Source of the DNA: a virus
Length of the DNA stretch: 11,571 nucleotides
Virus genome (UHGV): UHGV-0116702
Strand: one strand, 5' to 3'
The translations under genes and the position numbers were made by a program. Position 1 is the stretch's first letter. Every line of letters begins with the position of its first letter. Below are positions 1-11,571 of the stretch, piece after piece. The notes beneath the pieces are model-generated. The model did no database searches and had not been told where the DNA came from. It saw only the letters and a list, made by a program, of their open reading frames with translations.

Positions 1-57
1 CGAATAGCTTCACTGTGTGGACGTGCTGCATGAACCGGGCGGCTGTCTAAAATCATC

Positions 58-1720
58 AAGGTCTAAATACACTATGAGGATGATTAGGGGTTGGTAGATG
101 ATTCGGATGAAGCATCCTCATTACAAGACCAACTATAGAACTACCTGTTAATAACAGGACAATATCAGGTGAATCCCTATTCAATTTAAAGGCATTTTCC
201 CAAGTATCTAAGCAGTTTTACACAGATTCTATGCAGTATCGGTATAGTCTCTTTTTACCCTAACTTATTGAAATATATAGAGAATCTGTGAAGTCTCTTT
301 TCAGGGAACTATGCAGGGTGTTAGTCGTTCCTCTCTCGACCCTTAGAAAAGTGCTATATACAGGACTATATAACGCTATTCATGCAGTTGGTCACCATAT
401 GTTACAGTTGCAAGAGATAACAATCAGCTATGTGAAAGTTAGGAAGTGATGGTTACAGTTGATTCGGTTAGTTCTAGGAATCAACCTCATAGTTCCTTCG
501 TAGTTCCTCTTAAAAAATCACTTACAGACACCTTAATATCTATACAGATTTCATGTAGAACACGATTAGTGCGTAAAACAGCTATTATGTTAAAAACGCA
601 CTGTATACGTATCAGTACTGATTTATAAGGGTTTTGTGTATTGGATGATAAGAGGCTATGCAGCACCTTGAGAGCATGTCTTCTAAGTCATTGATACATA
701 AGGTCACAGAAGTTTGTGTCTGTTACAGAGAAAACTGGATAGGATTTCACAGAACTATAAAATGTTACAGCTATTGATAGGTTAAATCTTCTTGATAGAT
801 GCTTTGAAGTGTGGTGAAGGTTTCTTGAGGTGGAGCTAAACAGATGCTATGAAGAAAGTCAATGATATTTTAACTGCTTTTGCAAAGGGGGTGCTATATC
901 GTGAATCTGGGGTACTTAACAGCCATCAATTGAGTGTAGATATTTTTTAAGATTATCGGTGAAGGGGAATGTAGAGGGGGGTACTACGATTTTTATAAAA
1001 ATTTTCAGACTCTGAAAAGTTGCTGTACAGATTTTGCACAATCTTACCAAGCCTCATAGAAAGCTCTGTAGCGAGTTTTAACCCCATTTTTAGGGGTAAC
1101 CTGTAGGTATGTACCACCCACCTTAAAATAAAGGGGTAAAATCGCTTAGAATGCGTTACAGAGCGTCTGAGAAGCTATATTCACAGATTTTACTAAAACC
1201 TCAGACTTTCTAAGTGGTCTTTTTAACAGGAGGGGTTCCCCTATGGTCACATATCCCCTCTCTCGCTTAGTGAGCTACACAGACCTAGAGAACATGCTCT
1301 GTAACGCCTTCACAAACATTGACTAAGGTCAACTTCATAAACTCAGAGTTAAGTTACCTTGAAAGATTCTACCAAGAAACTACACAGGTATTATTTAGTC
1401 TGACTGTGAAGAGATGTTTAACGGGAGGAAGAGAACCATGAAAACCGAAGGTAGGTTCTATCTTAACAGTGACTGTAAGAGATACCTGAAAAGATACTTA
1501 ACAGAACTACCAAGAAGAGAGGGAACGATAAAACCAGAGGTAGTGACCTTGTTAAGTAGGTCGTTTCAAAGTCTCTTAAAAGTCTGTTAAGTAAGGGCTA
1601 TGTGAACAATCTTACCATTTTGTCAATGCTTTTGTCTTTGACCTAAATCAATAAAATGTATCGTTTGATGTGCTTTTAAACAAAATAGCTAAAAAATCTT
1701 TTTAGAGGGGCGCTTCGCTT
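58..1720. other. ORF-poor, motif-dense non-coding region (candidate ori / ncRNA / regulatory hub)
   Basis: The six-frame track shows only one 60-aa ORF in 1.66 kb, and it has no RBS. Region contains the conserved box copies at 1063-1075, 1145-1171 and 1296-1308, recurring CTGTGAAGAG and TTACAG/TTAACAG motifs, and a 17-bp perfect palindrome TTTTCAGACTCTGAAAA at about 1003-1019. Confidence 0.5.
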
Positions 1721-2389
1721 GTGTCACATCCAATAATCCATATCGGTCGTTATCATGGTGGTTCTGATGACTGGCGTACACCGTATCGTCTATTTCATAA
1801 CCTGCATCGTGAGTATAGCTTCAGTCTAGATGGTGCTGCAACTGAGCATGACGCATTGTTGCCACGGTTCACCGATGATATTCACAATCAATCATGGGTT
1901 GGTGAACGGGTCTTCGTTAACCCGCCGTTTAGCATGGCTGAACAGTTCCTCCTAAAAGCCCCTGAAGCTGATGTGTGTGTATGTCTGGTTCCGCACAGGT
2001 CAAAGACAACTTACTGGCTTCGGTGTGTATATACAAACCCCTTCCTGCATGAGATTCGAACGTTACACCGAGCGGTTAAATACCTTCCACCAGCAGGAAA
2101 GAGAGGTGTTGTAGCGCGTTCACCGTTTGCAAGTTGCGTTCTGATATACAGGAACACACCCCGTAAACCGAAGGTTGAAGTTACCCAGACAATCTATTGT
2201 GGCGACACAATGCTTTTACTTGCCGTGGTTAACAGGGGTGGTTTACGTGGAAGACCTCATATACACGATGCACAGACGCTTGACAGGTTGATTAAAATGC
2301 ATGACCAAGGGCAATCCATCAAGAGCATCGCAGAATCGCTAAGAATGCCTCTAAGCACCACTTACAGGATTGTTCAAAGGTTGGGCTGA
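1721..2389 (+). CDS. Phage-type N6-adenine DNA methyltransferase (Dam-like) fused to a C-terminal resolvase/invertase-type HTH domain
   Basis: 222-aa ORF with GTG start 10 nt after a GAGGGG Shine-Dalgarno. N-terminal ~155 aa carry DWRTP, LDGAA and the WVGERVFVNPPF motif with the catalytic NPPF tetrapeptide, typical of the small phage Dam family. C-terminal ~60 aa (GRPHIHDAQTLDRLIKMHDQGQSIKSIAESLRMPLSTTYRIV) match the GRP arm plus helix-turn-helix pattern of Hin/resolvase DNA-binding domains. Confidence 0.7.
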   Translation: MSHPIIHIGRYHGGSDDWRTPYRLFHNLHREYSFSLDGAATEHDALLPRFTDDIHNQSWVGERVFVNPPFSMAEQFLLKAPEADVCVCLVPHRSKTTYWLRCVYTNPFLHEIRTLHRAVKYLPPAGKRGVVARSPFASCVLIYRNTPRKPKVEVTQTIYCGDTMLLLAVVNRGGLRGRPHIHDAQTLDRLIKMHDQGQSIKSIAESLRMPLSTTYRIVQRLG

Positions 2390-2428
2390 AATTCTCATAT
2401 AGAGCACTGATTACGAGAATGTTAAAGA

Positions 2429-2462
2429 GGCGATTTCCCCTTTCTGGGGTTATTCGCTTTTT
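2429..2462 (+). terminator. Candidate intrinsic terminator downstream of the methyltransferase gene
   Basis: GGCGATTTCCCCTTTCTGGGGTTATTCGC: nested stems GCGA/TCGC and CCCC/GGGG, followed by TTTTT at 2458-2462. Confidence 0.4.
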
Positions 2463-2597
2463 ACTGGAAGGGTTATTTTACAGAGGTTTTTCAAACCCCC
2501 TCAATAATAGAAACGAGCAACAAACGAAGAGCGAGAAATAAAATATTGAGACTGGTGAACGGGGTCTGTAAAGATTGTTTAAGGGGGCAGTTAAGAA

Positions 2598-2630
2598 GGT
2601 GGCTCTCCCTTTCTGGGGTTATCGCCTTGT
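2598..2630 (+). repeat. Second, degenerate copy of the CCTTTCTGGGGTTAT hairpin motif
   Basis: GGCTCTCCCTTTCTGGGGTTATCGCC shares an ~18-nt core with the hairpin at 2429-2462 but has a weaker T-tract (CTTGTATCTT). Confidence 0.35.
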
Positions 2631-2654
2631 ATCTTAGTGAGTCCAGGAAGTTCT

Positions 2655-2835
2655 CTGTGAAGAGTCTTGTCAGTCCTTTATATTGGGTGATTACAACTCA
2701 TTGAAAAATAAGTGTTTTTAGAATTTACTGTTAAGGTTACAGAGTTAACTGTGAAGAGACTTGTCAGTTCTCTATATATGGCTAATTACAACTAATTGAA
2801 AAATAAGAACTTTTAGAAATTACTGTCAGAGAGGT
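2655..2835. repeat. Two tandem ~94-bp direct repeats (about 85% identity over ~75 bp)
   Basis: Copy 1 starts CTGTGAAGAGTCTTGTCAGTCC at 2655; copy 2 starts CTGTGAAGAGACTTGTCAGTTC at 2749. Both contain ATTACAACT, ATTGAAAAATAAG and TTTTAGAA-TTACTGT. The CTGTGAAGAG head also occurs at 1403-1412 and in variant form at 286-295 and 1468-1477. Confidence 0.6.
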
Positions 2836-2946
2836 GAATACTTGATAGATACAGCTTTCCGGTTCTGTCAAGCTATTTTTTCATAGATAGCACAAAATGC
2901 TAAAGATACCCCTATACCATCTCGTACAGGGGATTTTGGAGGGAGT

Positions 2947-3123
2947 TTAACGGGGGTCTGTGTGGTCATTATCCTTAAGGTCAAGCGTCCATGTATGACC
3001 GAACAGTTTAAAGACAACAAGCACTCTGACAAGGACGTAACGAAGTAGCAGACCTGCAATAAGTCCAATACCTCCACCAGCCCATACATCAGGTGACCCC
3101 AGTTCAGGAGGGAGATTTACCAT
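2947..3123 (-). CDS. Hypothetical small membrane protein (58 aa, one predicted TM helix)
   Basis: ATG at 3123-3121 preceded by AAGGA with 6-nt spacing on the minus strand. Product MVNLPPELGSPDVWAGGGIGLIAGLLLRYVLVRVLVVFKLF... has a glycine-rich hydrophobic stretch. The track ORF 2947-3165 is the same frame extended to a TTG. Divergent from the 3421 operon. Confidence 0.3.
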   Translation of the reverse strand: MVNLPPELGSPDVWAGGGIGLIAGLLLRYVLVRVLVVFKLFGHTWTLDLKDNDHTDPR

Positions 3124-3136
3124 TAGTTTTCCTTGT

Positions 3137-3235
3137 AAGACGCTCTCAATCGCATTCTGACACAAAAAGTACCTGACCTTATGAGTTGACCTTAAGAGGC
3201 TGTTTAACTCGTTACAGAGCGATTGAAGAGGTCTG
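3137..3235. repeat. Inverted-repeat-bracketed element, copy 1 (conserved left and right arms, divergent interior)
   Basis: Left arm AGACGCTCTCAATCGCATTCT (3138-3158); right arm CTGTTTAACTCGTTACAGAGCGATTGAAGAGGTCTG (3200-3235). Arms are imperfect reverse complements sharing GCGATTGAG and GTCTG. Interior contains a doubled TGACCTTA. Confidence 0.55.
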
Positions 3236-3341
3236 TGTGCAATGCAATAACCATGTGACCACTCTCATAGCCACGCCTTTATATTTTACTCTCCCCATAG
3301 AACCATTATACCATAGATGTTAATAAATTGTTAAAAAATGC

Positions 3342-3370
3342 TTGACATTAGTCTTTGAAACTGCTAGTAT
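3342..3370 (+). promoter_or_regulatory. Candidate sigma70-type promoter for the 3421-4658 operon
   Basis: TTGACA (3342-3347), 17-nt spacer, TAGTAT (3365-3370); A/T-rich upstream tract TTAAAAAATG; about 50 nt upstream of the ATG at 3421. Confidence 0.45.
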
Positions 3371-3420
3371 TGTACATATAAGTTAACAGAGAATTAACAA
3401 TTATAAGGACTAGCTTATGA

Positions 3421-3900
3421 ATGAACGACAGAGAATTTAGAGCGATGCTTCAGGCATCAAGAGAACGCAAAGGCATTGACGAAGTAATTCGGGCAATTAC
3501 ACCGAGGAGTCGTTATATGCCAACCAGAAAGAGCACCCAGAACACTATTAAAAATTATTTGGCTAACTTCGACAGCTACGAGCAACTACCAAGTAAGCTT
3601 GATGATATTTTCATTGGATTCTGTAGAAGTGAAGGCCACCCGAAATACAACAAAAAACTATTTTATCTTCTAAAGAATCTTGACGAAATTAACTCAGCTA
3701 CCGTGACAAATTATCTTCAGCGACAAGCAACCAGACTTAGTTATGAATTACCAAGCGATAAATATTGTGCATTGCTTGCTGTAATGTGTGCAAAGCTAAT
3801 TGGTATTGTTGAACATCATATTGCCGTTGGTAATATTGAGCCAATGGAAAACGAGCAACCAGACTTTGAGTTTGACCCGTATATTTTGGAGGAATTTTAA
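3421..3900 (+). CDS. Hypothetical protein (159 aa) with acidic C-terminal tail
   Basis: ATG with AAGGA SD about 11 nt upstream; first gene after the candidate promoter; ends ...ENEQPDFEFDPYILEEF. No family recognised by eye. Confidence 0.6.
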   Translation: MNDREFRAMLQASRERKGIDEVIRAITPRSRYMPTRKSTQNTIKNYLANFDSYEQLPSKLDDIFIGFCRSEGHPKYNKKLFYLLKNLDEINSATVTNYLQRQATRLSYELPSDKYCALLAVMCAKLIGIVEHHIAVGNIEPMENEQPDFEFDPYILEEF

Positions 3901-3901
3901 A

Positions 3902-4183
3902 ATGAAAAACAAACACACATTAACCCGCATTTCAGAGGAAGCTTTTAACGAGCTTACCAGAATTAAACGAGCTACTAACTTGCCTCATCAAACTGTAATG
4001 CAGCTTGCAATTGCTAAAGAGGTTACTGAGTCGGATTTACTGAAATATCCAGTCTCTAAAGGTCGTAAACACATCCGAATTAGTCAGGACGCTTTAGCTA
4101 CTTTGAAGGCGCTTAACGGCTTTAAGATTGATATTGCCCGTCTATTGAGTCTTAAAATTCACAAGCTGTCTCTGGAGGTCTGA
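3902..4183 (+). CDS. Hypothetical small protein (93 aa), possibly DNA-binding
   Basis: ATG at 3902 lies 1 nt after the upstream stop, with GGAGGA about 12 nt upstream. Preferred over the track's TTG start at 3800, which overlaps the upstream gene. Two internally similar segments (TLTRISEEAFNELTRIK / KHIRISQDALATLKAL) suggest a repeated motif; the DNA-binding idea is speculative. Confidence 0.55.
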   Translation: MKNKHTLTRISEEAFNELTRIKRATNLPHQTVMQLAIAKEVTESDLLKYPVSKGRKHIRISQDALATLKALNGFKIDIARLLSLKIHKLSLEV

Positions 4184-4185
4184 TT

Positions 4186-4458
4186 ATGAAGCAATGGCGA
4201 GATGATATTAAACGGTTCTTTGCAACTTACTTCATGATTAATTACGAAACAGGAATGCTTGAATGGATTGATGGTGGAGAGGTTAAGACAAGAGATGACG
4301 CTTACGGTAATCCAATGATTCGTTATGGCACTCGTGATTATTATGTGAAATATGTCATCTGGTTTTTGCATCATGAAGTTCAGGCAACTAAAAAAATTAT
4401 CTTCAGGGATGGTAATAAAAGAAATTGCCACCCAAACAATTTACTACTGGAGATTTAA
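4186..4458 (+). CDS. HNH_3-family (homing-endonuclease-like) small protein, possibly catalytically degenerate
   Basis: 90 aa; ATG 8 nt after GGAGG and 3 nt after the upstream stop. C-terminal YYVKYVIWFLHHEVQATKKIIFRDGNKRNCHPNNL matches the HNH_3 pattern (YYVHRLV...VxHIDGNKxNNxxxNL), but by my manual alignment the HID histidine is Phe (IIFRDGNK). Confidence 0.55.
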   Translation: MKQWRDDIKRFFATYFMINYETGMLEWIDGGEVKTRDDAYGNPMIRYGTRDYYVKYVIWFLHHEVQATKKIIFRDGNKRNCHPNNLLLEI

Positions 4459-4658
4459 TGCTATGTATTAAATTCGAATATTTGACAGATAAAATGATTA
4501 AGCATGTATCAGACCTGCTCATCAAAGAAGATGGTTTCGGTGATGTTTGCAATCCAAAAGATATCTTCATTCACGCCACCAGCCCAAATGAAACACTGAA
4601 AACAGCAGTTACAGCGGAATGGTTTGAACGAAATAAAGTAGAATTAGGCTATTGGTAG
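4458..4658 (+). CDS. Hypothetical protein (66 aa)
   Basis: ATG overlaps the upstream stop (TAATG) with GGAG 5 nt upstream, indicating translational coupling. Track ORF 4425-4658 is the same frame from a TTG inside the HNH gene. Confidence 0.5.
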   Translation: MLCIKFEYLTDKMIKHVSDLLIKEDGFGDVCNPKDIFIHATSPNETLKTAVTAEWFERNKVELGYW

Positions 4659-4692
4659 TCCGAGACTTTAAGAGAAATTAGAAAAACAGCTT

Positions 4693-4816
4693 CTCAGACG
4701 CTCTCAATCGCATTCTAACGCAAAAAACTATCTTATTTTAGGGTGGGTAATACCACTGTACAGGCTACCCCTGAAAAAGACTGTTTAGCTCGTTACAGAG
4801 CGATTGAGGAGGTCTG
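4693..4816. repeat. Inverted-repeat-bracketed element, copy 2
   Basis: Left arm CAGACGCTCTCAATCGCATTCT (4695-4716); right arm CTGTTTAGCTCGTTACAGAGCGATTGAGGAGGTCTG (4781-4816). Arms are nearly identical to copy 1 (right arm 35/37) while the interior differs in sequence and length. Ends 22 nt before the ATG at 4838. Confidence 0.55.
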
Positions 4817-4837
4817 GTAAAAAGGAGATTTTAGGAA

Positions 4838-5161
4838 ATGAACAATTACGAATTACAGATTTTCGTTGATAGCGACACCGCTATGATGATTCAGGCTTTC
4901 ACTGATGTAGGTGTTAGCATTGACTTTGACAGGCTGTTAAGGCTAATGGCTGATAACTCAGAAACAATTGAAGATTTTATTCAGTCGGTGGAGTTTAACG
5001 AGCCTCGAATGATGCTACCAATTAAAGACAGCAACATGAAAAGATTGGTTATCGAGCAAACGAACAAATTCAGCATTAGCCCTGAAAGATATCTCAAGGC
5101 AGCTATAGCAATTTTGTACGCTGACAATATTCTGGTGACGGATTCTGTGAGGATTCACTAA
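4838..5161 (+). CDS. Hypothetical protein (107 aa)
   Basis: ATG 9 nt after AAAAAGGAG SD; no recognisable motif. Confidence 0.6.
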   Translation: MNNYELQIFVDSDTAMMIQAFTDVGVSIDFDRLLRLMADNSETIEDFIQSVEFNEPRMMLPIKDSNMKRLVIEQTNKFSISPERYLKAAIAILYADNILVTDSVRIH

Positions 5162-5238
5162 TGGGTTTAATAATTGCTTGGGCGTTGCTTGGCTTATTTG
5201 TTGGTTGCTGGGTAGGTAACACAGTAAATAAGAATTGA
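5161..5238 (+). CDS. Candidate 25-aa hydrophobic microprotein (MGLIIAWALLGLFVGCWVGNTVNKN)
   Basis: ATG overlaps the stop of the 107-aa gene (TAATG). Sequence is almost entirely one TM-like helix with a polar C-terminus. Too short for the ORF track; support is overlap geometry and composition only. Confidence 0.3.
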   Translation: MGLIIAWALLGLFVGCWVGNTVNKN

Positions 5239-5262
5239 TGTTACCAATCTGTTAAAAAGCTG

Positions 5263-5291
5263 TTGACAAATAACCTTGAGCATGACATAAT
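5263..5291 (+). promoter_or_regulatory. Candidate sigma70-type promoter
   Basis: TTGACA (5263-5268), 17-nt spacer, CATAAT (5286-5291). The track's 67-aa ORF 5263-5466 begins inside this -35 hexamer. Confidence 0.4.
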
Positions 5292-5481
5292 TGTATATAT
5301 GAGGATAGTCTTCTATCCGAAGTCTATGAGGAGAGCAATTCTCTCTTATTTTCTTTCAATAATCCGATGGATGGATATTCTGAGTTGGAAAGGTGCAATG
5401 CTTTTCGTCATGGCCTTTCAGTTTAGTCTGAGAGGCTATCTCAAAAAGTGCTTAATCATTCATTGAACCCTTTACAGCTTT

Positions 5482-5510
5482 GCCCTAACTCATGATTAGG
5501 GCTTTCTTTA
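5482..5510 (+). terminator. Candidate intrinsic terminator
   Basis: GCCCTAA-CTCATGA-TTAGGGC perfect 7-bp stem followed by TTTCTTTA. Confidence 0.45.
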
Positions 5511-5579
5511 AGAGTTTTTAAACAGAGCTTTTAAAGAAAGTTTTTCCTGAAACTTCGTTAACGTTAAAGCAAACCTTCA

Positions 5580-5613
5580 AAGCCCTTCACAGATTATGTT
5601 TAGGGCTTTTCTT
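5580..5613 (+). terminator. Second candidate terminator hairpin (related stem)
   Basis: AAGCCCT - 15-nt loop - AGGGCTT followed by TTTCTT; shares the AGGGCTTT(T)CTT tail with the hairpin at 5482-5510. Confidence 0.4.
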
Positions 5614-5708
5614 AATAGAGCATCTTTAATAAATCGTTAAGTCATCTTCTAAGTGTATTGGCGTTGAAGGTGCTCTATTAAGAAATAACCACTTAGAGGA
5701 AAATTATA

Positions 5709-6419
5709 ATGACAAACGATTTATATATTAACGGTAAAAAGGTTGATAGCTTCGGTGACTGGTCGCCACAGACTGAACATCCAGCTATCACTATCCAGCG
5801 TAAAGAACATGATGAAAGAATTGCACTTGAGCAAGAAATCCGAATGTCACCAAAGGTAATTACCTTTGTAGCTCCTGAGCCTCAAGAGATGCCTGATATT
5901 TGCAAAACTCAAGCATTACTTGAGCTTGAGCGTGAATATTACCCACTGCTGAAAGCACAAAGAATTAAACTTGATATTGCTTACGACAATGTGAAGAACT
6001 TTGAAGAGACTGAAAAGCCAACTGATTTTGATATTGAAGTGGAAATTAGACAAAACCCATTCGTATATTACTCAGTTGAGGATAATGATGGTTTTGGTAC
6101 AGCAAGAGAGAATATCTCAAAAGTTCTTCAAAACATCCCTGAAGGATTCCGTTTAATTGATGTTAGACCAGCTTCACGCGGTACAGGTTCATATATTTTA
6201 CTGTCTGATAAAACAGATGAAGAGATTTGTCAGTTAGCTGAAAAGAATCTACTTGAGCGTCATAGCAAAAAATTAAACAGATTTAAGCAAGAACTTGCTA
6301 ACCAGCTTCAGGCTATGAAAGACCTTATTTCTGCATATGAAACGCAGAAGAAGGTTGCTATGCAGGCTGATATTGAGCAGTTAGTGAAGATTTCTCAGAA
6401 ATACGCAAAGGCACTTTGA
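5709..6419 (+). CDS. Hypothetical protein (236 aa), acidic with helical C-terminal region
   Basis: ATG about 10 nt after AGAGGA SD; long uninterrupted ORF; no family recognised by eye. Confidence 0.65.
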   Translation: MTNDLYINGKKVDSFGDWSPQTEHPAITIQRKEHDERIALEQEIRMSPKVITFVAPEPQEMPDICKTQALLELEREYYPLLKAQRIKLDIAYDNVKNFEETEKPTDFDIEVEIRQNPFVYYSVEDNDGFGTARENISKVLQNIPEGFRLIDVRPASRGTGSYILLSDKTDEEICQLAEKNLLERHSKKLNRFKQELANQLQAMKDLISAYETQKKVAMQADIEQLVKISQKYAKAL

Positions 6420-6444
6420 CTATGAATTAAAAAGGAGGTGATGA

Positions 6445-6648
6445 ATGTTTGATTTAACGGAACGCTATGAACTTATTAAAGCAATTAGCGAGAGATTGAA
6501 AGAACAACCCAACAAACCAAAACGAATCAAATCATCCACCTCTAAACAAAATAACAGAATCAGAAAAATTGCTAAATGGTGTCTGGATAGATTACCAAGT
6601 GATTGTCAGATTGTCGGTGAAGATGGCAATTATTATCTGATTAGGTAA
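6445..6648 (+). CDS. Hypothetical small basic protein (67 aa)
   Basis: ATG 5 nt after AAAAAGGAGG SD; lysine/arginine-rich centre (KPKRIKSSTSKQNNRIRKIAKW). Confidence 0.55.
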   Translation: MFDLTERYELIKAISERLKEQPNKPKRIKSSTSKQNNRIRKIAKWCLDRLPSDCQIVGEDGNYYLIR

Positions 6649-6673
6649 AGAATTGGTTGGGTGAAAATCTACG

Positions 6674-6714
6674 GGAGAGATTATCGAGTGACATCGGTAG
6701 TTTCTCCTTTTTTT
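6674..6714 (+). terminator. Candidate intrinsic terminator
   Basis: GGAGAGA (6674-6680) pairs with TTTCTCC (6701-6707) with one G-U pair, then T7 (6708-6714). The 20-nt loop is long, so confidence is moderate. Confidence 0.4.
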
Positions 6715-6736
6715 GTATGTGTGCTACATGAAATCT

Positions 6737-6787
6737 GTAAAGCTAATATCCACACTGAAAAATAGAATTTACGTAGCTCACGCTTAA
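6737..6787 (+). repeat. Direct repeat A (51 bp, 38-bp perfect core) immediately upstream of the tape-measure gene
   Basis: GTAAAGCTAATATCCACACTGAAAAATAGAATTTACGTAGCTCACGCTTAA. Core 6750-6787 is identical to 9024-9061. Contains a -10-like TAGAAT with no good -35. Confidence 0.8.
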
Positions 6788-6804
6788 AGAGGTGAAAAAT
6801 ATGA

Positions 6805-8985
6805 ATGAGCAAATTCACAGTTGATAGTTTTATCGTTGAACTAGGCTTCAATGAAAACGTTATTAAGGGCTTGCAAAGAGTTGAAAAGGCAGCTTTGCAG
6901 TCAGCACAAAGAATTGAACGTAATTTGAATAGAGCGTTTAAGGTCGATACCAAGCAACTTGACAGCAACCTGACAAGTTCTTTAGGGCAACTTGAAAGGA
7001 AGTTTAATAAGACCTTTGACAAGATTGAACAGAGAGCAAGAAATACTAAAGCTTTCCAGTTTACCACCAGATTTAATGACACTGTTAATCCTCCAAAACA
7101 ACCGAGACAGCCACGAATTAGCGGCAACAGAGCAATCACAGCAGCGCATAGCGTGAATATGTCTAAGCTTGGTGATATTAATCCGCTGATGGCTAAAATG
7201 TTTAAAGCACAGTATTACAGCTTAAGCGGTAAGGCTGGTAATATTGGAAGTGAAAAGTTTAACGCTGAACTTGCAAAATTAAATCAATCTCTTCGTGAAA
7301 CGTTGAATAAACTCAGGTCACAGACAAAGACCACCAGCATTAACAATACAAGCGACGCATTTAATAATCTTGCAAGCAATGCAATCAAGTTATCTGGTGC
7401 ATTTTACTCTGTGATGGGTGCTCTTAACGCTTACAAGGCCATTATGAATGCAGGTCTTAAACGAGATTCCGCACAGAGAGCCGCTAAGTTTGTACTTGGT
7501 GATAAAGCATCTGAAGCTGAGGTATTTATTCGAAATTTAGCAGACAAGACAGGTCTTAATATCTCTGAAGGGCTATCAAGCTACGCTAAGTTTGCAGCAG
7601 GTGCTCAGGGTTCTATGTCACAGGAACAGACACAGGAGCTATTTGGTAATGCAACGGCTATGAGTCGCTTAATGGGGCTTTCTAACGATGAGCTAAACGG
7701 CATTTTGAAAGCATTTGAGCAGATGGCGAGCAAGGGCAAGATTCAGGCTGAAGAGCTTCGTGGACAGTTAGGTGACCGTATGGCTGGTGCATTTAAGCTA
7801 TTCGCTGAAGCATTGGGTATGACTGCTACAGAGCTTGATAAAGCGATGAAAGACGGGAAGATTTTAAGTAGTGATACTCTCCCTAAAGTCGCTAAACAGA
7901 TGGGCTTGATGATTGATAAAGCGGGTGGCTGGGCTGAAGTCGCTAAGAGCACTCAGACAGCTTTAGGGAAACTGGCTAACAACTGGGATGATACGATGGT
8001 GAAAATCTTCTCAGGTTCACAGGATGAGCTAAACGGCTTCTTATCCAGCCTGAGTAACCTGCTTAGTGAAATGGGGATGAGTTCATCTATCGCTGGTGAT
8101 GCTATCGGTGGACTTATCGACATGCTTAAAGCTGGTGTGGATGACATCCGTATCTTTAACAATCACCTTGAAGGCTGGATTCTACAGACTAAGAAGTTCT
8201 ATTACAGCCTTGATGACACTAAACGAAAACTACTTGATGAAGTCGGTGATGGTTTTATCAACTTCGTCAAAGGTCTTGCTATAGCGTTATCTGCAAAGAC
8301 ACTATTCAGTGCTGCTACAGGGGTTATAAACCTGACAAGAGCAATCACAACGTTAGGTACAAGAGCTAATCAGGTTGCTGGTCAGGTAGCTACTGGTAAA
8401 GGTGGTGGAAAACTGAAAGGTGTAGCTGGTGGTGTAGGTAGTGCTCTTGCAATTGGTTATGCTGATGACGGTTATGAAACAGCGTTAGCATTAGCTTCAA
8501 TGATTCCACAAATCAGAGGCGTCACTCTTGGTTTATATGCATTGAAGAAAGCACTGGATTTTATGAATCAGGAAGTAGTCAAAAACGCTAATATGCATCC
8601 ATCTGGGGTAGGTGTGGGTAGTGACTTTAATCCCGTGTATTCTGGTGACCCTAATAAACCGAATATGATTAACGAAGGATGGGGTAGAATTTTTAGTTCA
8701 ATGGGTGAATTGTTTAACAATGCCACAATGAATATTGCAAGATTCAATCATCCAGAGTTAAACAACATTAAGCAAGATTCAGCATTAACGAGTGCAGATA
8801 TTCAGAGTCTGAGGGATGAAATCTCTGCTTTAAGTAAGCGTATTCAGGAGCCTGTGAAAGTTTCCTTGGGTGGTGAAGTTGCCATTAAACCAGATGAAAC
8901 CAGCTTTATGACCTTTAGCAGTAATATCTACGACCAATATGCAGAAGCTACGCTATTAAGTTCATCATTCCCAGAAGATGATTGA
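6805..8985 (+). CDS. Phage tail tape-measure-domain protein (726 aa)
   Basis: N-terminal coiled-coil-like segment, then LNGILKAFEQMASKGKIQAEELRGQLGDRMAGAFKLFAEALGMTATELDKAMKDGKILSSDTLPKVAKQMG, which matches the conserved tape-measure core. Downstream there are glycine-rich hydrophobic stretches (ATGKGGGKLKGVAGGVGSALAIGYA). SD AAGAGG is about 13 nt upstream. Confidence 0.7.
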   Translation: MSKFTVDSFIVELGFNENVIKGLQRVEKAALQSAQRIERNLNRAFKVDTKQLDSNLTSSLGQLERKFNKTFDKIEQRARNTKAFQFTTRFNDTVNPPKQPRQPRISGNRAITAAHSVNMSKLGDINPLMAKMFKAQYYSLSGKAGNIGSEKFNAELAKLNQSLRETLNKLRSQTKTTSINNTSDAFNNLASNAIKLSGAFYSVMGALNAYKAIMNAGLKRDSAQRAAKFVLGDKASEAEVFIRNLADKTGLNISEGLSSYAKFAAGAQGSMSQEQTQELFGNATAMSRLMGLSNDELNGILKAFEQMASKGKIQAEELRGQLGDRMAGAFKLFAEALGMTATELDKAMKDGKILSSDTLPKVAKQMGLMIDKAGGWAEVAKSTQTALGKLANNWDDTMVKIFSGSQDELNGFLSSLSNLLSEMGMSSSIAGDAIGGLIDMLKAGVDDIRIFNNHLEGWILQTKKFYYSLDDTKRKLLDEVGDGFINFVKGLAIALSAKTLFSAATGVINLTRAITTLGTRANQVAGQVATGKGGGKLKGVAGGVGSALAIGYADDGYETALALASMIPQIRGVTLGLYALKKALDFMNQEVVKNANMHPSGVGVGSDFNPVYSGDPNKPNMINEGWGRIFSSMGELFNNATMNIARFNHPELNNIKQDSALTSADIQSLRDEISALSKRIQEPVKVSLGGEVAIKPDETSFMTFSSNIYDQYAEATLLSSSFPEDD

Positions 8986-9010
8986 TTTAACGGTGTTCTA
9001 CGTGAATAAA

Positions 9011-9061
9011 GCAAAGTTAATACCCACACTGAAAAATAGAATTTACGTAGCTCACGCTTAA
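9011..9061 (+). repeat. Direct repeat B (copy of repeat A) immediately downstream of the tape-measure gene
   Basis: GCAAAGTTAATACCCACACTGAAAAATAGAATTTACGTAGCTCACGCTTAA; 48/51 identical to 6737-6787, offset 2274 bp; lies about 80 nt upstream of the ATG at 9142. Confidence 0.8.
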
Positions 9062-9141
9062 CAGAGAAAATACTTATATATCAAAGGCTTGGTTAAAAAT
9101 GATTAAAATACACTAAGCCTTTGAAATCAAAGGAGAATTTA

Positions 9142-9930
9142 ATGATTTTTAGCAATCAAATCCGCTACAGTGGCAAAGATGGCGTTTACTTCCACTTAAG
9201 AGATAATGTAGATGCCTTCTTAACCTTATCAGCAACTGAGAACATGGAATTTGATAGCCCTATGCAGGTGACTACACAGAACATGCAATCAGGGCAAACC
9301 GTCACAGATAATGTGCAAAGAGCACCCAGAACAATCACTATTAGCGGTGTCGTTGTAGTTGGCTATGAAGGGAGCTTATTATTAACTCGTCAGGGTCAAT
9401 TAGTAGAGAACTTCATCGACACTCTTGAAAACTGGCGTGACCAGAAACAAATTATTTCGGTCATCTGTAAAGACGGAATTAAAATTGATGATTCCATTAT
9501 CACAAGTTTTAAAGCCTCTAAAGATGTTGGAATTTCAAACGGATTAAGAATCCAACTAACTTTTCAGGAAATTAACTTCAGAGCTGTTGTGGGGCAGACT
9601 GATATCTCGGCTGCAACTGGAAAAGCCGCGACTACGAACGATGGTGGTGTGACCAGTAAGAAGAATGCAGGTAACGTGACCACTGAACGCAATAACGCGC
9701 CTATGCTATCGTGCAAAGAGCTAATGAGTATTAGCGATGTATCCGGTTACGCTCCAGCTATCAGAAATGATATTCTCGATGCTCAGATTAAGTGTAATAA
9801 GGCTTGGAAGCTGGACTATTCAGACTTAACAGAAGCTGAAAAAACCAACGTCACCAATGCTAATAGTAACGCTGGTCGGGTAGCTTCAAAGCTTAAAAAG
9901 TACTCAGTGAACCCTCACAAAAAATACTAA
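9142..9930 (+). CDS. Hypothetical protein (262 aa); possibly tail-associated on positional grounds only
   Basis: ATG 6 nt after AAGGAG SD; the track ORF from 9121 is the same frame from an upstream TTG. Sits directly after the tape-measure gene, where siphophages usually encode the distal tail protein, but I see no diagnostic motif. Confidence 0.55.
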
Positions 9931-11450
9931 ATCTCTACTACATCAACATCTATTAAACCCCTCTCAGTGACTTCAGAAAGCGACTGTATAGCCTCTGTAA
10001 CGTCCTCTGAGGGGTTTTCTGTTATTGATAAGGTGATTGACTTACCATTGTGAAAAGTTACTTTACAGCGACGTTTAGCAGTATTTAAAACGACCTCTTT
10101 AACAGCACTTTTGATTATCAGTTGTGCTTCAATTCTCCCCGCCTTTGTAGTCAAGTCACAATCAGACAAACACCCCACATCAATAGATTTAAGGCGTTGT
10201 GTCTCCTTCTCGATATCCGCATCAACCTGTGATAGCTCACCTTTTAACTGCTTTAGTTTGATGGTAATAGCTGACAAATCTTCAATTTCAAGTGATAGCT
10301 GTACCAGCTTTTCAATATTGCTTGAGATGTGTTCACGGTGTAGCCTCAACATATCTATGGTATTCGTCGTATCGCTATCAAATCGGTCAAGACGAGATAG
10401 CAGAGTAAGCAATGTACCATCGGTTTGCTTACGTGAAAGTCCTTTAGCACTACAACGGTTTTCATTACGAAGAGGACAACGATAAATCCCGTTTCTTGTA
10501 TCACTAAAGCCTGTGATAATCAGAGCATGACCACATTCAGAACAACGGATAACACCTTTAAAGAGATTCACACTCAATGGTTTATCTGAAACAGACCTCT
10601 TTCCATAACGAGAATGTGATAGTTGTTGAACTTTGTAGAATGTTGTTTCATCTATAATTGCAGGATAATAACCAGCTATCTCCTCACAGCCTTTAGGTGT
10701 GAAGTAACCAATTACAGAGCGATTCTTCAGAAGGTCTTGTACTGAGGTTTGACCAAACTTACCAGCTTTATATTGGTTAAGCGTCTGGTGACCTTCATCA
10801 TTAAGAGTCCTGACAATCGCCCAGATAGATTTGCCCTCTAACCGTAGCTGAAAGCACCTCTTCACAGTTTCTACCTTCTCAGGTATTACAGAGAAGCTTT
10901 TACGGTCATCATTCAGCCTTAACCATGCAGGACAACGCCTAGAAATCTTGATACCAGCTTTAGCAGCTTCTTTCTTTGCATCCCATGCAGCTTGTATACG
11001 CTCAGCCTTACGTAATGATTCCTCATGCGCCCTTTGCATTATCAGAATGCTTTTAATCAGGGATAACGGGTCTCTTAAGCTTTCCTTTGTGTAATGTTCA
11101 CCATCGGACAAGGTGACTACATCTACACCAGAGCGAAGAATGTTTCGTAATAGCTCACTTGCTCGGTCTACGGCCTGACGTGACAAACGGTCTAAACTCT
11201 CGATTAGTAGTGTATCACCAGCTTTAACAAGCCCTTTCTCGATAGCGGTTAAAAAGTCACCTAAGCCACCTTTCAAGTGCTTACCAGTGAATCCACTCAC
11301 ACCTAAATCACGGAAGGATAAATCTTGGTCAAGGTAGTACTCAGGTTGAGCCTTAAGCCAGTCATTAACCATCTTAGACTGTCTGCGTAGTGAATCACCT
11401 CGGGATTGCTTCTCAGATGAAAACCTGATGTAAGAAATGGCACGTTTCAT
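9927..11450 (-). CDS. Large serine recombinase (integrase, 507 aa)
   Basis: N-terminal resolvase-type catalytic domain with the nucleophile motif YIRFSSEKQ and arginines in DRLSR; central recombinase region; Cys-rich zinc ribbon CSECGH...[11 protein letters not shown]; C-terminal coiled-coil-like segment. GAGGTG SD 4 nt before the ATG. Confidence 0.9.
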
Positions 11451-11476
11451 TGTTCACCTCAAAACTGATGCCCTAG

Positions 11477-11505
11477 ATTGTATCGTTTTAGATGGTGTAT
11501 TTAAA
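11477..11505 (-). promoter_or_regulatory. Candidate promoter for the recombinase gene
   Basis: On the minus strand: TTTAAA, 17-nt spacer, TACAAT, about 25 nt upstream of the recombinase ATG. The -35 is weak. Confidence 0.3.
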
Positions 11506-11571
11506 CGTGTCTAATAAAAATCACCCGATTAACGCCGCGCTGATGTAAACCGCGATTAAGCGTTTGTTCCT

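Follow-up and report, generated by a model that had tools for sequence, protein, structure and literature searches.

A stretch of DNA catalogued as a virus, UHGV virus genome UHGV-0116702, raises the question of what an island that encodes an integrase, and no capsid, might do with genes for phage tail proteins. The whole stretch, 11,571 nucleotides (nt) long and referred to below as the window, had been read from its letters in an original prediction as an island extending from 45 to 11526, in which a large serine recombinase is accompanied by a Dam-HTH methyltransferase, an HNH-like gene in an operon of small genes, a 1.66-kb stretch free of open reading frames (ORFs) and a tape-measure gene. 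No other virion gene, and no terminase, portal, capsid, lysis or replication gene, had been recognized, and the element was placed with satellite or defense-type islands rather than prophages, without a match to a named satellite family. We compared the window with island copies, phage records and other sequences (given L-numbers such as L001, L016 and L026 where they need to be told apart), and consider it fairly probable that the island is an apparently undescribed satellite of the Felix-O1-like virulent myoviruses (Ounavirinae), one that would build chimeric tails. It belongs to a large family of islands in Escherichia coli, Shigella, Salmonella and Citrobacter. The tail genes, homology to the phage genome terminus, sequence exchange with virulent phages, swapped integration modules and the excised circle of a sister island all point to a helper-dependent element.

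The island is complete and occupies positions 56-11516 of the window (~11.46 kb), within the E. coli gene yecE (DUF72); the ends first proposed were thus close to, if not at, the true limits. The two halves of yecE, at 1-55 and 11517-11571, overlap by 7 bp on alignment to the uninterrupted gene, and the shared core AAAATCA stands at both junctions (49-55 and 11517-11523), so that the comparison of occupied and empty sites suggested in the original prediction defines the attachment sites. According to the yecE alignment attL extends over 49-72, with the core at 49-55 followed by an island-side arm bearing TAAATACAC at 64-72, and attR over 11495-11523, with an island-side arm bearing GTGTATTTA at 11495-11503 followed by the core at 11517-11523. 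The arms, as read from the sequence, form a 9-bp inverted repeat. The attP predicted from them is GTGTATTTA-N28-TAAATACAC (junction sequence CGTGTCTAATAAAATCATCAAGGTC), in which perfect 9-bp inverted repeats stand 28 bp apart with their center within the core, a predicted arrangement that fits a serine-integrase site. The integrase is a 507-amino acid (aa) large serine recombinase encoded at 9927-11450 on the minus strand, with Resolvase (PF00239), Recombinase (PF07508) and Zn_ribbon_recom (PF13408) domains; yecE islands share it at 91-96% identity. Related copies in complete genomes are flanked immediately by yecN/cmoA/cmoB on one side and yecD/aspS on the other with no capsid or terminase genes adjoining, and no contiguous structural, packaging, lysis or replication modules were found, the 11.46 kb being enclosed by the yecE halves with core genes on both sides. 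The island of the window is not the edge or a part of a larger prophage, which bears out its placement with satellite or defense-type islands. More distant relatives of the recombinase do not identify further copies of the element, as the recombinase is all that they have in common with it: one in Yersinia sits amid P2-like and lambda-like tail genes, and one in a yecE island of Klebsiella-type genomes goes without a tape measure. As the latter indicates, yecE is a hotspot; this unrelated Klebsiella-type island (L021/L022) is ~10.7 kb long with a large serine recombinase 48% identical to that of the window, and Stx-converting phages (L088, a Stx1a phage) insert in yecE ~380 nt from the site of the window's island. 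A match of window 14-55 to Stx-converting phages is trivial, as the records include flanking yecE and their own att duplication lies those ~380 nt away.

The tape-measure gene (6805-8985, plus strand) encodes a 726-aa protein matching TMP_3 (E 1.2e-22), phrog_4036 (E 5e-95) and gp17 of Escherichia phage Bas63 (E 4e-75), and was correctly recognized from the start. It is not the only virion gene, as had been thought. Adjoining it on the same strand, at 9142-9930 (or from an alternative upstream TTG start at 9121), is a gene for a 262-aa tube initiator (Dit-like) baseplate protein, which matches PF21821 Dit_like (E 2.5e-20), phrog_3721 (E 4e-129) and the Bas63 tube initiator gp18 (PDB 9NDY; E 1.8e-113). 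The rest of the original list of absences stands: searches of Pfam, PHROGs, NCBIfam and PADLOC with the island proteins gave no family of terminase, portal, capsid, lysis or replication proteins. In Bas63 four proteins make up the hub complex, namely the hub gp20, the piercing protein gp21, the tube initiator gp18 and gp17, which contributes its final 25 residues; gp18 in turn comprises a tube-like domain and a ~100-aa C-terminal extension that runs through the baseplate (PMC12609058). With its homologs of gp17 and gp18 the island therefore has its own versions of two out of these four baseplate-center proteins of Felixounaviruses. The segments of these proteins that are conserved in the island coincide with the parts contacting the hub, the piercing protein and the tube (PMC12609058), whereas most of the tape-measure body and the C-terminal extension of the tube initiator are island-specific, and gp20, gp21 and all other structural genes are missing.

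This division between contact surfaces and the remainder is evident in both proteins. Over its whole length the tape measure shares just 25-31% identity with phage gp17, and less than 60% with each of 50,697 phage records, its phage-like stretches being limited to residues 1-50 (67-70% identity), 301-350 (69-76%) and 701-726 (42-48%), the last of which is the counterpart of the part of gp17 observed in complex with hub and piercing protein. Its length among the islands (682-726 aa) is nevertheless close to the 742 aa of the phage protein. The tube initiator is 63-80% identical to its phage homologs overall, with ~90-100% aa identity in the tube-like domain as against 23-46% in the C-terminal extension, the last 85 residues being island-specific. 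A search with the whole window retrieved 228 phage records, mostly Escherichia and Salmonella Felixounaviruses, which match mainly within 9157-9675, the nucleotides of the tube-like domain. Over these the window is no further from phages than from other islands, being 92-95% identical to current Felixounaviruses and 69-93% to the islands, while the C-terminal part is conserved at 95-99% among islands sharing a tape-measure type. Among Felixounaviruses, the nearest tube initiators are those of wV8, vB_EcoM_Shy and Bas63. Such a mosaic of a tube-like domain close to the phages and an island-specific C-terminal part means that recombination with infecting virulent phages has occurred repeatedly. 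Identity among the yecE islands is 39-98% for the tape measure and 57-99% for the tube initiator. As the tape-measure body diverges, so does the tube-initiator extension (r ~0.7-0.8) and, less closely, the tube-like domain, a correlation that is no more than suggestive, being confounded by linkage. The ratios of nonsynonymous to synonymous substitution rates (dN/dS) are 0.18-0.32 for the tape measure and 0.05-0.12 for the tube initiator.

Each tail gene is preceded by a copy of a 69-nt repeat on the plus strand, the first (6719-6787) just upstream of the tape-measure gene and with a promoter-like TAGAAT, the second (8993-9061; 87% identical to the first) ahead of the tube-initiator gene. The phage counterparts of these genes abut, and the presence of a repeat in front of each in the island suggests that an activator-dependent promoter has been added to both. 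The repeats have a good -10 element (TAGAAT) and no -35 element, and there is no spacer between the phage genes. We also considered these repeats as copies of phage late promoters and discarded the idea, since they have no counterpart in the Felixounavirus NBEco004.

A second link to these phages comes from the left part of the island. All ORFs of at least 40 aa in 56-1720 are broken by frameshifts or stops in relatives, and the DNA itself is 80-96% identical among islands; the stretch of 1.66 kb described as ORF-free is therefore truly noncoding and under constraint. Within it, 141-1720 forms a conserved noncoding region, which is also a hotspot for cargo genes, and parts of it are homologous to the noncoding Ounavirinae genome terminus. 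In these phages the terminus is a ~1.7-kb noncoding stretch between convergent gene blocks, with an exact terminal repeat of 628 bp in NBEco004 (L003/L004) and 570 bp in Citrobacter phage HP1 (L018/L020). In the two records checked, the Felixounavirus NBEco004 and the Mooglevirus HP1, both boundaries of the repeat fall at the same homologous sequence, and the heptamer TGTTAAG occurs 12 times in the first kilobase of the phage genome as against roughly 0.4 per kb elsewhere. The boundary sequences read GTTAAGGGCTACC/AAGCAGATAT and AAAGTTACGTAAA..CTA/GCCCC.TTAACA (the slash marking the boundary), and the TGTTAAG array of the terminal repeat is phased. Together they are candidate packaging signals of the Ounavirinae.

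When 141-1720 was compared to the whole 85.5-kb NBEco004 genome, the best match (51.1 bits) spanned the terminal-repeat boundary, while 100 dinucleotide shuffles gave 29.0 +/- 2.3 bits with a maximum of 36.8. The boundary homolog occupies 766-1042 in the plus orientation and consists of short blocks that are conserved across 10 islands and three phages of two genera, with variable DNA between them. These are GATATTTTAA..TTTGCAAAGGGGG at 864; GGG.TAC..A.CAG at ~909-922, which spans the position of the phage cut (GGGCTACC/AAGCAG in the phage, GGGGTACTTAACAG in the island); AGATATTTT at 938; and TTTTATAAAAATTTT at 991. Downstream and in the same orientation, 1461-1617 is 71-80% identical to an internal part of the terminal repeat (HP1 244-355), and in searches of the whole phage collection over 20 Ounavirinae records match it (E 8e-6 to 3e-4), in a terminal region or in a repeat. 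The terminus homology is specific to the Ounavirinae.

The left end contains one more sequence in common with the phages, a ~50-nt mini-insert at 85-132 that is bounded by 7-bp inverted repeats (ATTGGTA/TACCAAT), contains a hairpin and is 87-91% identical to the terminal repeat of NBEco004/005 (NBEco004 307-369) and to EC106. We rejected window 77-140 as a mimic of the terminal repeat, because the mini-insert is present or absent in phages and islands alike and thus attests to exchange rather than mimicry: neither the HP1 terminal repeat nor island L001 has it, and it is present, next to the boundary-like block, in L002, L027, L093, L094 and L016. It occurs in 187 of the 5426 complete E. coli genomes, with a median of two copies, and may be a tiny mobile or recombinogenic element common to phage and island.

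The family is widespread and its integration modules are interchangeable. A conserved 1.7-kb island segment was detected in 405 of the 5426 complete E. coli genomes (~7.5%), always on the chromosome and in at most three copies per genome; YD786 (NZ_CP013112) and RM9154-C1 (NZ_CP031353) are among the island-positive strains. Besides E. coli, the proteins of the family are also present in Shigella, Salmonella, Citrobacter and E. albertii, a host range that equals that of the Ounavirinae. The gene order and the size of ~11 kb recur in hundreds of genomes of several genera with intact ORFs, and all island genes have dN/dS values of 0.05-0.5, that is, they are under purifying selection. The island body (window ~141-9930) is also found between yciI and tonB with a recombinase only 33% identical to that of the window, and elsewhere with a 547-aa recombinase, so that at least three recombinase/att modules have been swapped among related islands. 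Accessory genes have been gained and lost in the left region of family copies, where cargo has been exchanged in L016, L089, L093 and L094, and some copies have received insertion sequence (IS) and cargo insertions. The hotspot corresponds to window 380-852, aligned against 8520-9095 of L016 and against L089, L094 and L093, and the genes found in the left region of some islands encode a small serine recombinase (182-191 aa) or an HNH-AP2 endonuclease.

Excision has left a direct trace in a sister lineage. The metagenome contig L026, which encodes the 547-aa recombinase, has a 111-nt terminal overlap that closes it into an 11,099-bp circle, and L025, from another sample and 99.8-100% identical to it, extends past one unit. 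The circle junction, AAGAATACTA-GTGCTTT-TACATAGCTA, is the exact recombinant of attL and attR of the integrated copy L093, from which it follows that members of the family excise.

Taken together, these observations suggest the following life cycle. Infection by a Felixounavirus would turn the island on, probably via two ribbon-helix-helix regulators and repeated operator/promoter elements, and the recombinase would cut the island out as a circle. Phage machinery would copy it and recognize it through the terminus-like DNA, upon which it would be packaged into phage capsids, probably as a concatemer in view of its size, as has been described for the PICMI satellites. The island tape measure and tube initiator would then take the place of the phage proteins at the baseplate center, with the contact surfaces for the phage hub, piercing protein and tube retained and the rest divergent. 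The outcome would be chimeric tails, as shown experimentally for the PLEs of Vibrio cholerae, and the process would lower the phage yield and so protect the host population.

PLEs are V. cholerae islands with a large serine recombinase that parasitize the virulent myovirus ICP1, and their tape measure, tail chaperone (TAC) and, in some, hub (BhuB) are 20%, 20% and 41% identical to those of ICP1 (PMC12987554). It was reported in 2026 that PLE particles carry the PLE tail proteins instead of those of the phage, that the tape-measure gene is needed for efficient transduction, and that a tape measure was otherwise known in satellites only as predicted genes of PLE-like elements in Vibrio and of certain cf-PICIs (PMC12987554). 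The island resembles PLEs in being a small chromosomal element that encodes a large serine recombinase but neither capsid nor terminase, is associated with a virulent myovirus and has a divergent tape measure and a baseplate-center protein of its own, and in both families the tail-gene types form distinct groups. It differs in host and helper (Enterobacteriaceae and Ounavirinae as opposed to V. cholerae and ICP1), in location (yecE or yciI/tonB as opposed to the superintegron), in its second tail protein, which is a tube initiator rather than a hub, and in its size of ~11.5 kb, that of PLEs being ~18 kb. No tail chaperone was recognized in the island, the 67-aa and 236-aa proteins o67 and o236 giving no match and the 107-aa o107 being ribbon-helix-helix-like. 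PLEs are marked by a RepA-type initiator with its origin, NixI, TcaP, LidI and CapR, and at the sequence level no island protein matches such replication, nuclease-effector or scaffold families in Pfam, PHROGs or NCBIfam. On present evidence the island is not a member of the PLEs, from which host, helper and described markers set it apart. Whether this widespread ~11-kb island represents the first satellite family of virulent coliphages and Salmonella phages, with a copy of the terminal-repeat junction for concatemer packaging and a baseplate center rebuilt from its own fast-evolving tape measure and a tube initiator that recombination has fitted to the helper time and again, in which case chimeric tails would have arisen independently of PLEs and would be a general strategy of satellites, is a proposition on which we find ourselves evenly poised.

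Several observations weigh against a satellite of the Ounavirinae. Each step of the above cycle beyond integration and, in a sister copy, excision is inferred, and we recognized none of the island proteins as a replication initiator, a small terminase, a capsid-size factor or a tail chaperone. The circular contigs belong to a sister lineage with a different recombinase and come from metagenomes of unknown fraction, and the circle is evidence of excision and not of encapsidation. An exact search for the attP junction of the window's own island found no viral contigs, and its 60 matches in metagenomes were all due to chance, being devoid of island sequence. Matches in IMG/VR were likewise set aside as evidence of virions, as they are provirus calls from isolate genomes and one metagenome contig. 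Further, the 11.46-kb unit is not an integer fraction of the 86-89-kb helper genome, Felixounavirus genomes being 85-89 kb long and described as lytic. The terminus homology has its own limits: only one of the two terminal-repeat boundaries has an island counterpart, the homologous pieces are in permuted order relative to the phage, and the first three blocks, designated m1-m3, are missing from L025, L026 and L089, that is 3 of the 13 island sequences covering the left region, which include both circular-form contigs. In these islands a small serine recombinase gene lies within or beside the block region. A packaging role for the terminus-like DNA, proposed here from sequence, is accordingly weakened by its absence from some copies. 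Lastly, the tape measure has no close phage relative and the promoter-like repeats are unlike the intergenic regions of the late genes of NBEco004, due to which the true helper could be an unsampled lineage.

Of the alternatives the most durable is a mobile defense island that is not packaged at all, whose tail proteins would poison baseplates, whose terminus-like DNA would be a decoy for phage DNA-binding proteins, and which would spread by rare excision along with other routes. We regard this as rather unlikely, even as we acknowledge that it would account for the sequence evidence almost as well as a satellite does. Conserved interface segments joined to divergent bodies would suit dominant-negative subunits no less than chimeric tails, and the extreme diversification of the tape measure, o236 and o107 suggests an arms race; no packaging, replication or capsid-remodeling gene was found, and the terminus-like blocks are dispensable in some copies. 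Interference with tail assembly is, moreover, an established form of defense, as in Tai (PMC11364771), a prophage-encoded virion-assembly inhibitor (PMC10884400) and Rta of PLE11 (PMC12987554). All three are borne by mobile elements and target tail assembly, as the island might, but Rta has no similarity to known proteins (PMC12987554) and nothing in the portions available of the other two reports suggests homology to tail proteins (PMC11364771, PMC10884400), whereas the candidates in the island are full-length tail proteins. Against it stand the tape-measure length, which is kept close to that of the phage, and the purifying selection on both tail genes, a pattern that structural proteins in working order would show; transduction of PLEs depends on the corresponding gene set (PMC12987554). 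The entire body travels with interchangeable integrase/att modules, the circle is abundant in two metagenome assemblies, and no known defense system is matched in PADLOC. Our preference for a satellite over a defense island comes from the length of the tape measure, the pattern of selection, the portability of the integrase modules and the abundance of the circle.

To the possibility that the island is a satellite or parasite of some other, unsampled phage group, its similarity to Felixounaviruses reflecting shared tail-module ancestry and occasional recombination, we assign a slim chance. The distance of the tape measure from gp17 and from every phage record is what such a helper would lead one to expect, yet the PLE tail proteins are equally distant from those of a proven helper, at 20-41% identity (PMC12987554). 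The 69-nt repeats lacking a counterpart in NBEco004 and a 43-nt patch (1139-1181) that matches the terminal-repeat regions of T5-like phages instead also speak for it. On the other hand, the near-identity of the tube-like domain to many current Felixounaviruses, the restriction of the terminus homology to Ounavirinae and the agreement of host ranges all lead back to that subfamily. A decaying prophage remnant, or a plain cargo island with functionless tail genes, is very unlikely, for although the island has just two virion genes among many uncharacterized ones, and some copies have taken up IS and cargo, its order and size recur in hundreds of genomes with intact ORFs under purifying selection, its noncoding DNA is conserved, an excised circle exists, and no temperate Ounavirinae-like prophage adjoins it.

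The preferred reading, a satellite of Ounavirinae, also invites comparison with satellites other than PLEs. In common with satellites generally, the island has its own integrase and specific att sites and no capsid or packaging genes of its own, but in keeping with the original prediction no described element matches it end to end. Typical PICIs are marked by a tyrosine integrase, AlpA, a primase-replicase, and small terminase or capsid-redirection genes; P4-like elements by psu, sid, delta and alpha; and cf-PICIs by capsid, portal, protease and terminase genes. None of these families is matched by the island proteins in Pfam, PHROGs or NCBIfam, and the search of satellite marker sets and defense families proposed at the outset yielded, beyond this, only the call of an orphan methyltransferase by PADLOC. 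Such marker sets are those used by SatelliteFinder (PMC10085698). PICMIs (phage-inducible chromosomal minimalist islands) of the Vibrionaceae are satellites of virulent phages with few genes and no capsid remodeling that are packaged as concatemers (PMC10803314). This is the mode that we propose for the island; PICMIs differ in being from marine Vibrionaceae, tail genes are not mentioned in the abstract describing them (PMC10803314), and we detected no genes in common. Some putative cf-PICIs carry a tape-measure gene (PMC12987554), but cf-PICIs rely on stolen tails while supplying capsid and packaging genes themselves, whereas the island has none of these genes. Full-text searches, with subscription-only works outside their scope, returned no literature linking Felixounaviruses, yecE or the island gene set to a satellite.

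If our interpretation is correct, resistance to Felix-O1-like phages at the level of strains would be explained in part by an island, present in ~7.5% of complete E. coli genomes, that hijacks or blocks them. Felix O1 is, like its relatives, a classic phage for typing Salmonella, and such phages are widely isolated as agents of biocontrol and therapy directed at E. coli, Shigella and Salmonella. The island would also constitute a route of gene transfer during lytic infection, and the chimeric-tail strategy first shown in 2026 for PLEs would extend to the Enterobacteriaceae. With the helper baseplate solved in Bas63, it would offer a tractable E. coli model for why satellites replace the tape measure. 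The blocks common to islands and phages at the terminal-repeat boundary point, in addition, to an Ounavirinae packaging signal, of which we found no description in the literature consulted.

The remaining genes include those predicted at the outset, along with one that was then overlooked. The Dam-type N6-adenine methyltransferase with an HTH_7 domain (1721-2389, plus strand; PF05869, E 2.7e-13) is as had been predicted, and is the orphan methyltransferase of PADLOC, which otherwise reported no known defense family. It is an accessory gene (dN/dS 0.21-0.36), missing from L014, L015 and L025. The gene added here lies at 2947-3123 on the minus strand and encodes a conserved 58-aa protein with one predicted membrane helix (GGGIGLIAGLLLRYVLVRVLVVF); its ORF is intact in all eight relatives compared (82-98% nt identity) and is annotated as a gene in L025-L027 and L089. 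It is downstream of the minus-strand member (3334-3305) of a pair of putative divergent sigma-70-type promoters in 3305-3370, TTAACA-18-TATAAT on the minus and TTGACA-17-TAGTAT on the plus strand, each with an upstream TG and identified by consensus matches only.

The plus-strand operon opens with a gene for a 159-aa protein (3421-3900; dN/dS 0.12-0.26) that has 19 relatives among 1.84 billion representative proteins and belongs to no informative family. It is followed at 3902-4183 by a 93-aa protein (dN/dS 0.05-0.15) with weak DndE-like matches, which, from the strand-helix-helix pattern read from its sequence, is probably a tandem ribbon-helix-helix DNA-binding protein. Next comes the 90-aa HNH_3-like protein (4186-4458; phrog_959), upheld as a weak match, below the Pfam cut-off (PF13392, E 4.4e-5). 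It is 100% identical in L001, L002, L010 and L013, and its gene has a dS of 0 across islands whose adjoining genes differ by 25-45%. Its motif is FRDGNKRN..NNL, where HNH_3 proteins usually have HH.DGN; because of this FRDGN motif the protein may be inactive through loss of the catalytic histidine. The 66-aa product of the subsequent gene (4458-4658) has no family match.

Further downstream on the plus strand two hypervariable proteins precede the tail genes. The first, o107 (4838-5161), forms more than 3400 clusters at 90% identity. Its AlphaFold model (pLDDT 64) has a strand-helix-helix unit twice and weakly matches TraY chains of the F relaxosome (E 0.03), on the strength of which it is probably a tandem ribbon-helix-helix (TraY-like) DNA binder; the same features led us to discard the idea that it is the tail chaperone. 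The second, o236 (5709-6419; dN/dS 0.3-0.5), is a coiled-coil protein with more than 3100 clusters at 90% identity, confined to E. coli, Shigella, Salmonella and Citrobacter, and is 23-75% identical among yecE islands. It has no family or phage homolog, and a fold search of the PDB with its AlphaFold model (pLDDT 69) gave nothing significant; the label 'transposase' given to it by NCBI is unsupported in Pfam, NCBIfam, PHROGs and the PDB fold search. The gene for o67 (6445-6648) follows, with a terminator-like hairpin at 6673-6708. Neither o67 nor o236 nor the 159-aa protein has a sequence match in the PDB, and a scan of the window found no Rfam families or tRNAs.

Repeated elements are spread through the island. 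A tandem 95-nt repeat of 1.8 copies at 2655-2826 has a promoter-like TAGAA(T/A)TTAC in each copy, and an operator-like element containing the 9-mer GTTACAGAG lies at 4690-4816, with further copies at 3132-3235 and, inverted, at 1146-1207. The 9-mer occurs seven times in 11.5 kb as against ~0.1 expected (722, 1155, 2736, 3211 and 4792 on the plus strand, 1305 and 10001 on the minus strand), and most of its copies adjoin promoter-like or operator-like repeats; it is a candidate binding site for a regulator. The patch at 1139-1181 is 91% identical to noncoding terminal-repeat regions of T5-like Salmonella phages (Epseptimavirus; E 9e-5) and overlaps a 27-nt island repeat found at 1148-1174 on the plus strand and at 3132-3158 and 4690-4716 on the minus strand. 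Finally, a scan of genome contigs with the recombinase returned a single sequence, a 548-bp contig labeled Mycobacterium sp. NAZ190054 (L006), which encodes a 97%-identical recombinase fragment and is probably an assembly contamination.

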